A stretch of DNA of 64,000 nucleotides from an uncultured Clostridia bacterium (GTDB lineage: Bacteria > Bacillota > Clostridia > TANB77 > CAG-508), in contig CAOSLI010000005.1 in assembly GCA_948524275.1 (NCBI GenBank), positions 16,968-80,967 on the forward strand. The letters run 5' to 3'. A program made the translations under genes and the position numbers. Positions 46,376 to 55,870 of the stretch are shown here, piece after piece. The notes under the pieces are model-generated. The model was not told the origin of the DNA, ran no database searches, and saw only the letters and a list, made by a program, of their open reading frames with translations. Numbering within the stretch: the stretch's first letter is position 1; each line of letters begins with the position of its first letter.

Positions 46376-46459
46376 TTATATCACAAATTGCTAAAAAGAT
46401 GAGTGGGTATGCACCCACTCATCTTTTATTAAAACTGTTATTATGATAGTGATAAGATA

Positions 46460-48379
46460 TTACCAAATGCTTGAATCTGCATCAGATGGCATTCTCAAGT
46501 CGCCTCTGGGAGAAACGCTCACTGTTCCGACTTTTGGACCATCAGGAATACAATTTCTCTTAAATTGATTGCGGAAGAATCTCGAAATAAAATTGTCGTA
46601 ATATTTAGAGAGTTCATCCTCAGAATATGTGCCCCAAAAAGCAATTGTAGCCAAATACAGAATCTTATTGCGAGAAAATCTCTTCCTCAAAAGATTGTAG
46701 ATAAAGAAGTCAATGACCTCATAAGGGCCAACGGTATTTTCCGTTTTCTGAACAATTTCTTTACCATTAGTCGGAAGTAGCTCAGGACTAATCGGAGTAT
46801 TTATAATATCCAATAATGTATCCTTAAGCTCAGGATTTTCTTTGCCAGCTTCGACAGCGTACAACTCAATGATGTATTTCACAAGAGTTTTGGGAATAGA
46901 GCAATTAACTCCATACATACTCATGTGATCTCCATTGTAGGTACACCAACCTAAAACCAGTTCAGACAAATCGCCAGTGCCAATCAAAATGCCATGATGC
47001 TTGTTTGCCATATTCATAAGAATCATGGTTCTGACCCTTGCTTGAACATTTTCGTATGTAATGTCGTGAATGCTCGGATCATGACCAATATCTTTGAAAT
47101 GCTGTATACAAGAGTCCTTGATAGGAATTTCCTGTAAGGTTATGCCTAACTCTTTGCACAATTTAACAGCATTATTATAAGTGCGGTCAGTTGTACCAAA
47201 ACCAGGCATTGTGATTCCGATTATTCCGGAAAAGTCAAGATTCAGCTTTTTAAAAGCATCATAGCATACAAGCAGTGCTAAAGTTGAATCCAAACCACCA
47301 GAAATGCCAATTGTAACTTTCGTGTTCTTGATTGCGGACAATCTTCGTGCCAAGCCAGTGGACTGGATGGAAATGATCTCTTTGCAGACTTTGCTACGGG
47401 CATCATTATCCAAAGTAGGAACAAAAGGATGTTTATTAACGCTACGGTCAAGAATGTAGTGAGCATCATAAAAATCCTTCTGAGAAAACGAAATCTCTCT
47501 ATAAGAAGAGGTTAAGTTTCTCTTGCTATCGCTGAAGGTCTTATTAGAAACTCTCTCATTGGTCAAAGCTTCAATATCGACGTCAAATATCTCTATATTA
47601 CCATAAAGCTGATAGCGATCAAGTGATGCAAGTTCTTTGCCGTTTTCAAAAGCATAGCCACTACCTCCAAATACCAAATCGCTTGTAGATTCAGCAAAGC
47701 CCGTAGAGATATAAAGATATGCTGAAATGGTTCTGGAACTTTGTGTTTTAATCAGTTCCTTGCGATAATCATCCTTGCCAACAAGTTCATTACTGGAAGA
47801 CAAGTTTGCAATGATGTTAGCGCCAGCTAATGCGAGATAAGAACTGGGCGGAATAACAGACCACAAATCTTCGCAGATTTCCACTCCTAATCTATAACCA
47901 ACAGATGAAGAAAAGATTAAATTGCCAAAAGGCACATCTTCACCCAATAGATTAACAGATGTTATTGAAGTGTCTGTATAAGCCGTAAACCACCGCTTTT
48001 CATAGAATTCGCCGTAGTTAGGAAGATATTGCTTCGGAACAACTCCAAGAATTTGCCCTTTATGAATGACAACCGCGCAGTTATACAATGTATCAGAAAC
48101 ATTTATAGGTGCTCCGACAACAAAGAGAACATCATGAGAACTAGAGAACAATACAAGATCATTCAAGTATCCCATAGATGCTTTCATAAGTTGCGAATAA
48201 CCGAAAAGATCCTGACAGGTATAACCAGTCAAAGAAAGTTCGGGGAATATTAATACCTTAACATTCCGGGAGTCGGCGTAGGTTATCAAATCCTTCATTT
48301 TTGCTGTTGCATCCTGAGGATTAGAAAGTTCACTATTGAAAGTTGCAATAGCGCACTTTACAAAGCCAAAGTTTAGCAT
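46460..48379 (-). CDS. nadE: glutamine-dependent NAD+ synthetase (nitrilase domain plus NAD synthase)
   Basis: C-N hydrolase N-domain (FPELSLTGY) and the PP-loop ISGGLDS. About 45% GC, with an in-frame CGG read as Arg. Confidence 0.85.
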   Translation of the reverse strand: MLNFGFVKCAIATFNSELSNPQDATAKMKDLITYADSRNVKVLIFPELSLTGYTCQDLFGYSQLMKASMGYLNDLVLFSSSHDVLFVVGAPINVSDTLYNCAVVIHKGQILGVVPKQYLPNYGEFYEKRWFTAYTDTSITSVNLLGEDVPFGNLIFSSSVGYRLGVEICEDLWSVIPPSSYLALAGANIIANLSSSNELVGKDDYRKELIKTQSSRTISAYLYISTGFAESTSDLVFGGSGYAFENGKELASLDRYQLYGNIEIFDVDIEALTNERVSNKTFSDSKRNLTSSYREISFSQKDFYDAHYILDRSVNKHPFVPTLDNDARSKVCKEIISIQSTGLARRLSAIKNTKVTIGISGGLDSTLALLVCYDAFKKLNLDFSGIIGITMPGFGTTDRTYNNAVKLCKELGITLQEIPIKDSCIQHFKDIGHDPSIHDITYENVQARVRTMILMNMANKHHGILIGTGDLSELVLGWCTYNGDHMSMYGVNCSIPKTLVKYIIELYAVEAGKENPELKDTLLDIINTPISPELLPTNGKEIVQKTENTVGPYEVIDFFIYNLLRKRFSRNKILYLATIAFWGTYSEDELSKYYDNFISRFFRNQFKRNCIPDGPKVGTVSVSPRGDLRMPSDADSSIW

Positions 48380-48672
48380 GATGAAAAAACCTCCTTAAAA
48401 TCAATGATTTAACAGTAATAACATGTTTTTTAGGCCATCTGCAATTGCTTATAGCTTTATCAAAAACAGTTATGATTTATTGTATCATAATACTAGAATT
48501 ATGTCAATCTTAAAATGTAGGAACTGAAGATTGTTCAAATCTAACATAAAATACTATTGCAAACTTATGTAAACTGTGATATAATTGTGACAAGTTTTGT
48601 GTAATTATGTGAGAAGAATAATATCTTCTTGTAAATCACCAAAACAAATAATTTTTAGGAGGTATTGGATTT

Positions 48673-53956: not shown

Positions 53957-53962
53957 GGAGGT

Positions 53963-55732
53963 TTGAAAATGGCAATTACATTTGCAAGCCGGAGCCGCGT
54001 TGAAAGCTTAAAGAAATTAGGCGAAGGCGGAGAGGCGGCAATCTATGAGTATGACGCAAAGAGAGTGCTCAAGATTTTCAATGCTAAGACGGACTTGGCG
54101 AGGAAAGAAAAGAAGGTCAAATACTTTATTTCCATAAAGGGGAGTCTTCCAAAAAATGTTATTGGCCCTGAGGAAATAGTTACAGTGGGCGGTAAATTTG
54201 CAGGATATGCAATGAGAAAGTTGGCGAATGCTGAAGATTTGCATATGCTTGCTAAACCTAAATTCTTAGTTACCGCAAGGTTTACGAATCAAGATGTACT
54301 GCAAATTGTAACAAACTTAGGAACACATCTTGGAGCATTACACTCAGCAGGAATTATTGTAGGAGATGTTAGTGACCAAAATTTCCAAGTATGTGGAAAG
54401 AGCGATTACTTCATCGATGTTGATAGCTGGGGTGCAAAGGGTAAATTTAATCCTGACGCATATACAGAGCTATTTACATGTCCTGACAGTTACGCTGCTG
54501 ACGGAAGCATAGCATTCTCGGAAGAGAATGAGAATTACAATTTTGCAGTTCTCGCTTTCAATATGCTGGCAAAGATTCATCCTTTTGCAGGCACGTATCT
54601 TCCTGATAAGAACATTTCAATTTTGGAGAGAATGAAAAGAAAGCTTTCCATTGTAGGCAGTCATAAGGGAGATATAAAGATTCCTAAAAGTATTGGTAGT
54701 TGGAAATGGATGTCTCCTAAACTCGAAGAGGATTTTATCCAGATCTTCGAGCAAGGGAAGAGGATGGACATCACGCCTGACCTTCAAGAGCTTCTCGGGA
54801 ATATGAAGCATTGTAGCAGTCATGACATTTACTACTACTCTAAGTTTAGTGAATGCCCGCTGTGTAATGAGAATGCTAAGGTCAAGATGGCTCCTGTTGC
54901 GGCAAAGGTTACTCAAACTGCAAATGGACCGCAAGTTACTGTTATATTTGCAGGTGGTGACTGTGCATACATTTTAAGTAGCATACATTATCTCAACCGA
55001 GAGGGTTACGCTGTTCACTTTGATACTGGACGGAAATTTGCAATTACTCGAGGAAAGAGAGTTGATTTCTCTAATGATGGAAAAGTCGTGTATGTGACTG
55101 ATGATGATACCATTGAAGTTTACGACGCAAGCGACCAGCTGATTTCCACAATTGAACGTATGCACAAGACTAATTATCTTGTAAGAGATAGAGATATCTA
55201 TTACGTTGATAACGGAAATAATTTTGTTAAGCTGTCAGTAACTAAGTCGGGTAATATGCCTCACTATTTAGGGCAGGTATATAATCCTTTGCTTACGGTT
55301 TCAGACGACGGAAATGTACTGGTTGCATCTATGTATCCGAAAAAGGCAATTATCACCACACCGGATTACAACTTTGAGGTAAGCTATACTGGTAGAATCA
55401 AGGAGTATGCTATCAAGTATGATAAGCAGACGAAAAAATGGCTCTTTGTTTACCAGAAGGCTAACGGAAAATACCGCACTATGGTATTTGCTAAAAACCA
55501 GATTGAATATGATGATGACGTTATACTGTATAACGCTCAGACTTTGAGCAATATAGACTTCTTTAACAACACCATCTATGATCCGGCAGATGGCAAAATC
55601 ATTGGAACCAACATTGTCAAGAACACTGCAAGAGAATTCGAGTGCAGTGTAGTAGATGAAAGCTCCGCGCTTAAGTTTACAGGCAAAGGCTTTAAAATCT
55701 ACAACAAGAGCAAGATTTATAACTATGGTTGA
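53963..55732 (+). CDS. protein kinase-like domain plus a C-terminal beta-rich domain
   Basis: Gly-rich loop GEGGEAAIYE, Lys in VLKIF, catalytic-loop-like HSAGIIVGDVSDQN, and IDVDSWG. Confidence 0.5.
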   Translation: MKMAITFASRSRVESLKKLGEGGEAAIYEYDAKRVLKIFNAKTDLARKEKKVKYFISIKGSLPKNVIGPEEIVTVGGKFAGYAMRKLANAEDLHMLAKPKFLVTARFTNQDVLQIVTNLGTHLGALHSAGIIVGDVSDQNFQVCGKSDYFIDVDSWGAKGKFNPDAYTELFTCPDSYAADGSIAFSEENENYNFAVLAFNMLAKIHPFAGTYLPDKNISILERMKRKLSIVGSHKGDIKIPKSIGSWKWMSPKLEEDFIQIFEQGKRMDITPDLQELLGNMKHCSSHDIYYYSKFSECPLCNENAKVKMAPVAAKVTQTANGPQVTVIFAGGDCAYILSSIHYLNREGYAVHFDTGRKFAITRGKRVDFSNDGKVVYVTDDDTIEVYDASDQLISTIERMHKTNYLVRDRDIYYVDNGNNFVKLSVTKSGNMPHYLGQVYNPLLTVSDDGNVLVASMYPKKAIITTPDYNFEVSYTGRIKEYAIKYDKQTKKWLFVYQKANGKYRTMVFAKNQIEYDDDVILYNAQTLSNIDFFNNTIYDPADGKIIGTNIVKNTAREFECSVVDESSALKFTGKGFKIYNKSKIYNYG

Positions 55733-55870
55733 TTAAGTTAGCTAATGGTCTTTCCATAAGCTACAGATTAAAGGTCCTAAGCAGCACAAAAACTGCTTGG
55801 GACTTTTCTATAATATAAAAATGGTGTATAATAGAATATGTAAATTATAAAGAAAGTATGTGTTTGAAAA

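Follow-up and report, generated by a model that had tools for sequence, protein, structure and literature searches.

A GC-rich cluster of NAD+ recycling genes, with a NARP1 pair and a portable nicotinamidase block, in an uncultured Clostridia bacterium

The window analysed here is a stretch of 64,000 nucleotides (nt) of contig CAOSLI010000005.1 from an uncultured Clostridia bacterium, in which seven genes between about 46440 and 55800 form an island rich in guanine and cytosine (GC). The genes encode NadE, Adps, Namat, a nicotinamidase, a vWA-domain protein, a PP2C-family phosphatase and a kinase-like protein, and they are laid out as three units: nadE, which is divergent; the pair adps-namat; and a four-gene operon that begins with the nicotinamidase. 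We consider it probable, at about 60%, that the island is a self-contained NAD+ recycling cluster, compositionally foreign yet long resident in a small clade of gut Clostridia. The analysis was based on this one 64-kb window; its relatives are metagenomic loci (given below by L numbers), and the counts of gene contexts describe samples rather than a census. A first-pass annotation had listed the same genes. Its gene list was retained, but its labels 'prs-like' and 'NAMPT-like' missed the NARP1 module, and the unit made up of the PncA-like protein and the vWA-phosphatase-kinase trio was also missed.

The NAD+ enzymes of the cluster

The adps gene (48673-49494, + strand) encodes a Prs-like protein of 273 amino acids (aa), the predicted ADP-ribose diphosphokinase of NARP1, and lies directly upstream of namat. 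The protein was 43% identical to gp78 of phage FADO and matched phrog_619 (E 5e-60). It fell under every NCBIfam cutoff for Prs (93 bits versus 113), and the best solved Prs reached only 67 bits. On these homology scores Adps is assigned to the NARP1 Adps clade rather than to housekeeping Prs. A role for Adps as a defence gene was considered and rejected; its matches to ShosT/PsyrT in the defence library represent the shared phosphoribosyltransferase fold and not membership.

The namat gene (49512-51068), on the same strand as adps, encodes a NAMPT-like protein of 518 aa, the predicted nicotinamide ADP-ribose transferase of NARP1. It was 48% identical to FADO gp77, matched phrog_448 (E 2e-161), and scored 484 bits against the Namat crystal structures 9W5X/9W5W versus about 167 bits against human NAMPT. 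The Namat signature has been given as GS-X-Phi-X-Phi-X-Phi-TRD, with X aromatic (PMC12774641). At aa 407 the protein has the selectivity-clamp helix signature GSYTYQYMTRD, with Met as the third Phi, which is usually Asn or Val, and GSYTYQY[MV]TRD was present in all of the other bacterial homologs checked (9/9). The catalytic Arg, which is Arg306 in SpbetaL1 Namat, for which a mutant has been described, and Arg311 in human NAMPT (10.1101/2024.02.11.579819), was retained, as RPDSGDP of the window protein aligned to residues 306-312 of 9W5X. The GDFSMRG motif was retained as well. The selectivity-clamp loop of Namat has a stacking Arg, Lys or Tyr; in the window protein TPRKSRIEG aligned to TPRTSRVED of 9W5X with the Arg kept, a possible equivalent of that residue.

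FADO lacking NARP1 loses its resistance to DSR2, and 97% of Adps-clade genes adjoin Namat (bioRxiv 10.1101/2024.02.11.579819). The pair in the window resembles the validated FADO pair in its adjacent Adps-then-Namat order, its 43% and 48% identity, its signature and catalytic Arg, and in having the Namat crystals as its closest structures, and on this homology the Prs-like and NAMPT-like proteins are a NARP1 module. It differs from NARP1 in its company, which here is a fixed seven-gene cluster with NadE, the nicotinamidase and the trio, and elsewhere NadE, the nicotinamidase and NrtR. Neighbouring NadE, PncA or NrtR genes are unmentioned in the NARP1 reports (10.1101/2024.02.11.579819; PMC12774641). 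Chromosomal bacterial NARP1 outside mobile elements has already been reported (10.1101/2024.02.11.579819; PMC12774641), and one chromosomal copy was found to be enzymatically active, its physiological role being stated as open (PMC12774641). In the metagenome-assembled genome (MAG) GCA_948845805.1 (L001/L003), from an uncultured gut Clostridia bacterium and matching the window, Namat was called as two pieces of 33 and 442 aa. Four other samples and the window have the intact gene (518 aa), and the break is probably due to misassembly or marks a pseudogene of that MAG.

The nadE gene (46460-48379, - strand) encodes a glutamine-dependent NAD+ synthetase of 639 aa with CN-hydrolase and NAD synthase domains. 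The protein scored 818.9 bits against NCBIfam NF002730 (cutoff 473), and Pfam CN_hydrolase and NAD_synthase both matched. The gene had a GC of 0.385 and a GC at third codon positions (GC3) of 0.356.

The nicotinamidase gene (51355-52269, + strand) encodes a PncA/Pnc1-like protein of 304 aa. The open reading frame (ORF) is open from 51286 in this genome, and the start is most likely at 51355, as in the homologs. The protein failed the family thresholds, with 20.2 bits versus 27 for PF00857 and 39.6 versus 174 for NF008623. A profile of 30 homologs searched against the PDB retrieved nicotinamidases only, and the AlphaFold2 (AF2) model, with a predicted local distance difference test score (pLDDT) of 92.3, returned nicotinamidases at all of Foldseek ranks 1-11 (E 9e-13 to 4e-9). 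The catalytic triad D50, K196 and C242, which aligned with the Pnc1 and PncA motifs, was invariant in the 30 homologs, as was the metal site D92, H94 and H162, the last lying in WPYHC, which corresponds to WPVHC of Pnc1. The protein is like canonical PncA/Pnc1 in its fold, Asp-Lys-Cys triad and Asp-His-His metal site. It differs in being about 100 residues longer, with an N-terminal extension and a 50-residue insertion, in its 13-20% identity to solved enzymes, and in its own characteristic gene neighbourhoods. By these features it is a divergent long-form subfamily, with about 838 clusters in the family (50% identity, E<=1e-30). The fusion partners of the long form were uninformative, having no Pfam domains or representing a probable Rho gene-call fusion.

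The identities of NadE, Adps and Namat, and the fold and residues of the nicotinamidase, are established at the level of sequence by conserved active sites and by homology to enzymes that have been tested. In three bacterial contigs of up to 1.7 Mb (L239, L242 and L243), the genes for Adps, Namat, NadE, the nicotinamidase and NrtR abut on one strand without the trio. As judged from this gene order, the functional linkage of the four NAD enzymes is independent of the trio.

The portable four-gene block

Three genes follow the nicotinamidase on the + strand. The first (52291-52992) encodes a vWA-domain protein of 233 aa with a metal ion-dependent adhesion site (MIDAS) motif, DGSGS at aa 40. It matched Pfam VWA at 25.3 bits (cutoff 23.8) and phrog_7371 (E 9e-11), and reached 20.2 bits for vWA-TerF-like, under the cutoff of 29.4. 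The second (53078-53956) encodes a PP2C-family Ser/Thr phosphatase of 292 aa (Pfam PP2C_2 E 3.4e-12, 46.8 bits versus 24). The third (53969-55732, its frame also open from a TTG at 53963) encodes a protein-kinase-like protein of 587 aa with a Cys/His element and a C-terminal all-beta, propeller-like domain; its homologs were 586-590 aa long. The match to Pfam Pkinase was weak (19 bits, under the 31.7 cutoff), and Bud32 matched too. A phage homolog reached 31.1 bits for Pkinase, just under the cutoff, and passed that of RIO1 (22.7 versus 22). In the C-terminal part, C10, H13, C24 and C27 were invariant (C-x2-H...C-x2-C), an element modelled at low confidence. The AF2 model had about 28 strands, with pLDDT >90 for residues 70-250, and Foldseek matched the domain of about 280 residues to beta-propellers at a template modelling (TM) score of about 0.4.

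The order nicotinamidase-vWA-PP2C-kinase was kept in 61 of 72 IMG/VR viral contigs, which had a GC of 24-44%, and in many of 80 metagenome loci. In phage L100, which has 13 tRNA genes next to the block, it was located between the terminase gene and those for the portal and major head proteins. The block was present, too, in huge phages with genomes of 462 and 485 kb (24% and 56% GC); one of these, LR756500, encoded NadE 3.3 kb upstream. The GC of the block in phages was that of the phage itself. Elsewhere the block stood alone among housekeeping genes (L170 and L172), adjoined PncB-NadE-NadD (L093), or had NadE directly upstream of the nicotinamidase (L225). These contexts establish the operon layout, the portability of this third unit and its abundance in phages, and on conserved gene order the four genes are one portable unit. 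The nearest phage copies of the four proteins were 53%, 38%, 37% and 32% identical, and a megablast search of two phage loci against GenBank phages returned only one unverified 6.5-kb faecal contig.

Other genes were seen just upstream of the block in some loci. A phrog_850 'RNA-binding' Ro/TROVE-like protein was encoded there in phages L097 (2849-4300), L100 (8487-9938) and L144 (6645-8204). It has the domains DUF2828, DUF7788 and vWA, and could be a fifth, phage-specific block component. In L093 (5978-6922) and L176 (2477-3394), a protein of about 310 aa without a Pfam match precedes the block, and the L093 copy has its own conserved leader.

The TerY-P triad is described as a TerY-like vWA protein, PP2C and a Ser/Thr kinase, and its stand-alone form is reported to defend against T7-like phages (PMC11090510, PMC7699616). 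The trio is like TerY-P in having its three domain types in one operon and a C-terminal kinase extension that starts with a Cys/His element. It differs in that the extension appears to be propeller-like rather than a bare zinc ribbon or OB fold, and in that the trio is always preceded by a nicotinamidase and is found mostly in phage genomes. Membership of TerY-P by sequence was rejected, as no PADLOC TerY-P model matched the window trio even at E<=10. No annotated TerY similar to the vWA protein was found among 72,556 plasmids, and no ter genes were present among the annotated window genes. A TerY-P-like phospho-switch is suggested as the working mode by analogy, not membership. The triad was reportedly described by Anantharaman et al. 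in 2012, and is said to be a defence system of Gao et al. (2020) and an accessory to CoCoNuT systems.

Composition, edges and distribution of the island

The GC was 0.399 for 46440-55800 and 0.281 for the rest of the window. Across 186 other 9.4-kb segments the mean was 0.281 (standard deviation 0.018, maximum 0.307), giving the island an excess of about 6.5 standard deviations. The first-pass annotation was right that GC is high, but its figure of about 45% was not reproduced: the mean was 39.9%, and only 1-kb peaks inside the island reached 0.46. The sharp change that it described at both ends was evident in 100-nt windows, where GC rose from 0.22 to 0.35-0.41 at 46.3-46.5 kb and fell from 0.35 to 0.19 at 55.7-55.8 kb. 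The shift was located at synonymous sites, with GC3 values of 0.36-0.52 in the seven island genes versus 0.13-0.26 in 17 flanking genes. Codon counts per 1000 codons agreed with the free use of CGG and CCG reported earlier: CCG was found at 12.6 in the island and 0.5 outside it (25-fold enriched), CGG at 4.6 and 0.2 (23-fold enriched), and TTA at 9.1 and 43.9 (5-fold depleted). The share of AGA among Arg codons was 0.38 inside the island and 0.74 outside. The tetranucleotide correlation with the rest of the window was 0.79-0.80 at 48-56 kb and 0.96-0.99 elsewhere. The island was aberrant in both of the analyses that the annotation had proposed, sliding-window GC and tetranucleotide composition, and the flanking composition was not similar to it.

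Terminator hairpins flank the island, as previously described, at refined positions. The left edge is a bidirectional intrinsic-terminator hairpin (46394-46427) common to a SnoaL-like gene (+) and nadE (-). It consists of a perfect 15-bp inverted repeat with a 4-nt loop and U/A tracts for both strands, and its fold was -23.2 kcal/mol (z -8.0) on the + strand and -22.7 kcal/mol (z -7.0) on the - strand. DNA homology to L090, L091 and L174 started at 46394/46395. The right edge is the intrinsic terminator of the nicotinamidase-vWA-PP2C-kinase operon (55770-55807, + strand), a 15-bp stem followed by UUUUCU (-21.7 kcal/mol, z -5.9), and DNA homology to other lineages reached its right limit at 55734-55772. 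The window ORFs and a repeat search gave no integrase-like ORF beside either edge and no direct repeats flanking the island. The sole tRNA in the window, tRNA-Leu at 41474-41557, lies 5 kb to the left, so that the reported lack of integrase, tRNA and direct repeats at the edges was borne out. The locus has the atypical composition and patchy distribution of a classical mobile island but none of its mobility features (integrase or recombinase, flanking repeats, tRNA or other att site), and no phage structural or replication genes were located within or beside the island.

Near-identical contigs of five other samples had the island in place at the same site in every case. To its right, at 55871-59316, lie the genes for an AraC/GyrI-like regulator, for a TrwB/HerA-like ATPase of 638 aa and for a protein of 236 aa without a Pfam match (g236). 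This triad kept its order, with 40-85% identity, in at least 70 of the 80 uncultured Clostridia/Bacilli species that were compared. A conjugative or integrative and conjugative element (ICE) was rejected as an explanation of the locus, as the 'T4 coupling protein-like' ATPase is a gene of this conserved chromosomal triad. In all 80 related species (80/80), the island and left-flank genes were absent within 10 kb of the AraC anchor, and because nothing left of AraC is syntenic in these species, absence applies only within that distance. The search for an empty site and a donor that the annotation had advised was thus answered in part: the island is missing beside the AraC block in the 80 species, but no clean empty site was found among them, and no donor lineage emerged, as no copy outside the species exceeded about 77-87% protein identity. 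Synteny in all relatives, the outcome that the annotation had set against a foreign island, was not what these 80 species displayed.

Other contexts were reached via kinase homologs of 59-77% identity. The full seven genes were found in L090, between MFS and GNAT_C/NUDIX, and in L091, which is the L174 contig, between GlyRS and o164. L180 also has the full form, with nadE cut at the contig end and the left flank unseen. DNA homology of the window to other lineages covered 46394-55772, with the same edges and unrelated flanks (SnoaL and AraC in the window), and related lineages carried the island at 73-80% DNA identity. Rightward from a breakpoint shortly before the nicotinamidase gene (position 7098 in both), L089 and L090 were 99.8% identical across 14.7 kb and encoded an identical kinase protein. 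To the left of the breakpoint, L089 has TrmA, and L090 has MFS-NadE-Adps-Namat and a 60-nt remnant of the TrmA 3' end. This presence/absence variant indicates that the half with NARP1 and NadE and the four-gene half are separable. In L180 an insertion of 3.1 kb (4531-7680) parts Namat from the nicotinamidase, at the junction of the two transcription units. TrmA (left, in L089) and g585 (right, in L179 and L180) are neighbours of the island in the window too, so the closest relatives share its broad location.

Between lineages, island proteins were 68-87% identical and flank proteins 57-59%. The excess of synonymous identity was +0.07 to +0.21 for the island genes and +0.13 for the flank gene g585. 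TrmA (aa identity 0.59, 4-fold sites saturated) had suggested that the island postdates the split of its hosts; this was withdrawn since the synonymous signal of g585 is like that of the island. GC3 in six low-GC hosts was 0.27-0.52 for the nicotinamidase and vWA genes and ranged from host-like to 0.40 for the PP2C and kinase genes. In L170 the respective values were about 0.38-0.41 and the host level of 0.17-0.19. Persistence of a high GC3 could reflect selection, gene conversion from phage copies or repeated import. The foreign character of the island is supported by its composition and its phage affinities, and the phage gene pool may be its source. That it is a recent mobile island is not supported. 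The 'foreign island' of the first-pass annotation accordingly holds for composition, patchy distribution and phage-type modules, but not in the sense of a recent or strain-specific mobile island.

The genes nadE and adps diverge from a promoter region at 48479-48585, which includes a nadE promoter at 48507-48479 (-) and an adps promoter at 48557-48585 (+). In the consensus scan they matched at 11/12 and 10/12 positions, each with TG before the -10 (extended -10); these promoters are consensus matches only, and promoter-like sites in the region were no more numerous than in shuffles. A hairpin after namat (51099-51127, + strand; -21.6 kcal/mol, z -5.4) lies between the two + strand transcription units, and hairpins of different sequence were found at the same position in L090 (z -5.5) and L091 (z -5.1). 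The nicotinamidase operon is preceded by a promoter and a leader of about 140 nt (51184-51354, + strand), the promoter at 51184-51212 being an 11/12 match with TG. The leader (51213-51354) was kept in at least 11 loci (L090, L091, L172, L175-L179, L182, L188 and L190, and twice in L093). A strong Shine-Dalgarno sequence and a mini-ORF, ATG AGA TAG or ATG AGA TAT TGA, were present in most of these loci, and the leader carries the element GCAGTCAAnTGAC, a 5-bp helix with two compensatory changes and anti-Shine-Dalgarno pairing. No Rfam family matched the leaders, and their consensus fold was weak (-4.6 kcal/mol). The leader is possibly a new cis-regulatory element. The idea that the two + strand promoters share an operator was rejected: the 17-mer TGTGATATAATTGT[G/C]AC was not conserved in L090/L091 and is mostly extended -10. 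Between the vWA and PP2C genes there is a 13-bp GC-rich hairpin (53029-53057, + strand; -22.3 kcal/mol, z -4.2), a terminator-like scan match and a possible attenuator or processing site. It could uncouple the expression of the first two genes from that of the last two, at the same boundary as the GC3 split seen elsewhere.

Two further features were observed to the left of the island. At 43948-45277 the tRNA (uracil-5)-methyltransferase gene is in two parts, a TRAM ORF (43948-44391) followed by a methyltransferase ORF (44423-45277), where L089 has a single gene of 458 aa; the split may represent a frameshift, a pseudogene or a sequencing error. On the - strand, the region 38153-41557 contains a skipping-rope RNA (38153-38237), a PBECR3 nuclease-toxin gene, an Ltp-like lipoprotein with dockerin, a RelB/YoeB pair (taken from the MAG gene calls) and the tRNA-Leu, and its GC skew is reversed. 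The region resembles the remnant of a small mobile element or prophage and is distinct from the island.

Proposed function, alternatives and significance

In the proposed NAD+ recycling cluster, NADases would cleave NAD+ to ADP-ribose and nicotinamide. Adps would then use ATP to convert ADP-ribose to ADP-ribose pyrophosphate, and Namat would join this to nicotinamide, so that NAD+ would be rebuilt directly from both NADase products. The nicotinamidase would turn nicotinamide into nicotinate, which would enter the deamidated route ending at NadE, with PncB and NadD supplied from elsewhere; this route would take nicotinamide that has no ADP-ribose partner. The trio would be a phosphorylation switch that sets the activity of the nicotinamidase, or the split of nicotinamide between the two routes, and the propeller-like domain of the kinase would be its sensor. 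The trigger might be the cleavage of NAD+, whether by abortive-infection NADases of the cell itself, NADase toxins from competitors or ADP-ribosyltransferases. We infer here this trigger, the substrates that the bacterium uses, and what the kinase and phosphatase act on.

Several observations weigh against this reading. PncB and NadD lie outside the island, which leaves the deamidated route incomplete as seen, and NadE could simply be a housekeeping copy. The nicotinamidase competes with Namat for nicotinamide, so their co-expression is not obviously cooperative. Action of the kinase and phosphatase on the nicotinamidase is a proposal, and the kinase fell under the Pfam cutoff. In 61 viral contigs no NAD gene was found within 10 kb of the block, and the link to NAD therefore rests on the nicotinamidase itself and a minority of contexts. 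Neither simple import nor simple amelioration explains why GC3 has stayed high where synonymous sites have diverged heavily. As to an origin in the phage pool, the nearest phage copies are only 32-53% identical, and NARP1 may have arisen in bacteria (PMC12774641).

An anti-phage defence island, with the trio as a TerY-P-like infection sensor and the nicotinamidase as effector, is an unlikely alternative in our estimate. Destruction of nicotinamide on infection would relieve product inhibition of NADases and starve phage NARP1 or NARP2, and the cell's own NARP1 and NadE would serve recovery. This would suit a three-gene architecture equal to that of the TerY-P triad, which in its stand-alone form is reported to act against T7-like phages (PMC11090510, PMC7699616). 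It would also suit the Cys/His element and sensor-like C-terminal domain of the kinase, the matches of its phage homolog to PADLOC mad6, MkoA, PD-T4-6 and Stk2 (E 3e-7 to 8e-6), and the frequency of defence genes in phages and prophages. However, PADLOC gave no TerY-P match for any of the three window proteins (E<=10), the vWA protein had no detectable similarity to plasmid TerY, and no other defence genes flank the island. The location of the block among the structural genes of the 13-tRNA phage and in huge phages is better fitted by a phage function, and L239 has the nicotinamidase in one operon with NARP1 and NrtR but no trio, which argues for cooperation with NAD+ rebuilding and not antagonism. 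We are equally doubtful that the cluster is a vertically inherited housekeeping NAD operon in which selection (for expression, mRNA structure or codon-based regulation) keeps GC high. NAD genes belong to core metabolism, and prs-nadV clusters are found widely together with NAD regulons (PMC2330246). Neighbourhood genes are held in common with the closest relatives (TrmA in L089; g585 in L179 and L180), the synonymous signal of the island is similar to that of g585 (+0.07 to +0.21 versus +0.13), and the GC3 pattern in L170 looks like gene-specific maintenance. Such inheritance would nevertheless have to accommodate the absence of the cluster beside the AraC block in 80 related species, identical edges within unrelated flanks (SnoaL/AraC, MFS/GNAT_C and GlyRS/o164), the four-gene block alone at further sites and in phages of 24-56% GC, the presence/absence polymorphism of L089 and L090, and a tetranucleotide signature that is aberrant besides GC. 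To our knowledge, there is also no selective reason for a doubled GC3 across seven neighbouring genes of different function.

In a deamidated form of NARP1, the nicotinamidase would supply nicotinate, the Namat-like enzyme would join it to ADP-ribose pyrophosphate to give deamido-NAD, and NadE would amidate the product, with no need for PncB or NadD. It would explain why NadE and the nicotinamidase, and not PncB or NadD, accompany Adps-Namat in the window, L090, L091, L180 and L239, and the NadE-nicotinamidase pairing recurs in L225 and phage LR756500. We regard it as very unlikely, since the Asp of GDFSMRG is kept in the Namat homologs; it corresponds to Asp219 of human NAMPT, which we take to be the residue that selects nicotinamide over nicotinate. 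In addition, the block of L093 is paired with canonical PncB and NadD, and Namat homologs are 48-60% identical to enzymes shown to use nicotinamide (PMC12774641). Least credible of all is a recent strain-specific mobile island, ICE fragment or prophage remnant. Sharp compositional edges, a TrwB/TraG-like ATPase two genes downstream and phage-type gene content would point that way, but no integrase, recombinase, att repeat or adjacent tRNA was found at the locus, the TrwB-like ATPase is part of the AraC-ATPase-g236 triad of nearly all of the 80 species, and no phage structural or replication genes lie in or beside the island. The island also occupies the same site in near-identical contigs from five samples and is carried by relatives at 73-80% DNA identity.

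A broader reading of the block, which we put forward tentatively, is that of an undescribed phosphorylation-controlled module of phage-bacterium NAD+ conflict that was domesticated as regulated NAD+ repair in gut Clostridia. If so, the block might give phages a fourth NAD+-restoring route through the deamidated pathway, with NadE where present, or it might deny nicotinamide to NARP1- or NARP2-dependent rivals.

Both NARP1 and its bacterial form were already known, as was the clustering of NAD-regulon genes. Operons of the type nrtR-prs-nadV were described in 2008, with the Prs paralog unexplained, and NrtR is an ADP-ribose-responsive NAD regulator (PMC2330246). The island is like the NrtR/NiaR regulon clusters (nrtR-prs-nadV; nrtR-pncA-pncB-nadD-nadE) in its clustered NAD salvage genes, with a Prs paralog and a NadV-like gene and with pncA/nadE, and L239 has NrtR. 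It differs in that the window has the trio in the regulator's place and a distinct 304-aa long-form nicotinamidase under the Pfam cutoff. No Nudix/NrtR gene was present among the annotated window genes (about 38-64 kb); NrtR operators were not searched for. NARP2 (NAMPT and NMNAT) and NARP3 (PnuC and NadR-like) of phages are also phage-borne systems of NAD+ restoration (10.1101/2024.02.11.579819; PMC13464706), but neither includes a nicotinamidase, NadE or signalling proteins. A literature search for NARP1 with a nicotinamidase, or for a nicotinamidase with vWA/PP2C/kinase in a phage context, found neither.

Depleting NAD+ is one of the main ways in which bacteria resist phages, and since 2024 three pathways have been reported by which phages rebuild it. 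The four-gene block is frequent in phage genomes, the window proteins have no PADLOC match, and the NARP reports cited here do not include the block. It is a candidate new player in NAD+-centred immunity or counter-immunity. A lasting GC-rich cluster in genomes of 24-30% GC is a small puzzle for amelioration models. The locus and its relatives provide concrete handles on the open role of chromosomal, non-mobile NARP1 (PMC12774641). That NARP1 is repeatedly wired to NadE and a special nicotinamidase, under NrtR or the trio, argues for regulated NAD+ repair after cleavage, and if the block is indeed a domesticated module of NAD+ conflict, its fusion with NARP1 and NadE would address the purpose of chromosomal NARP1.

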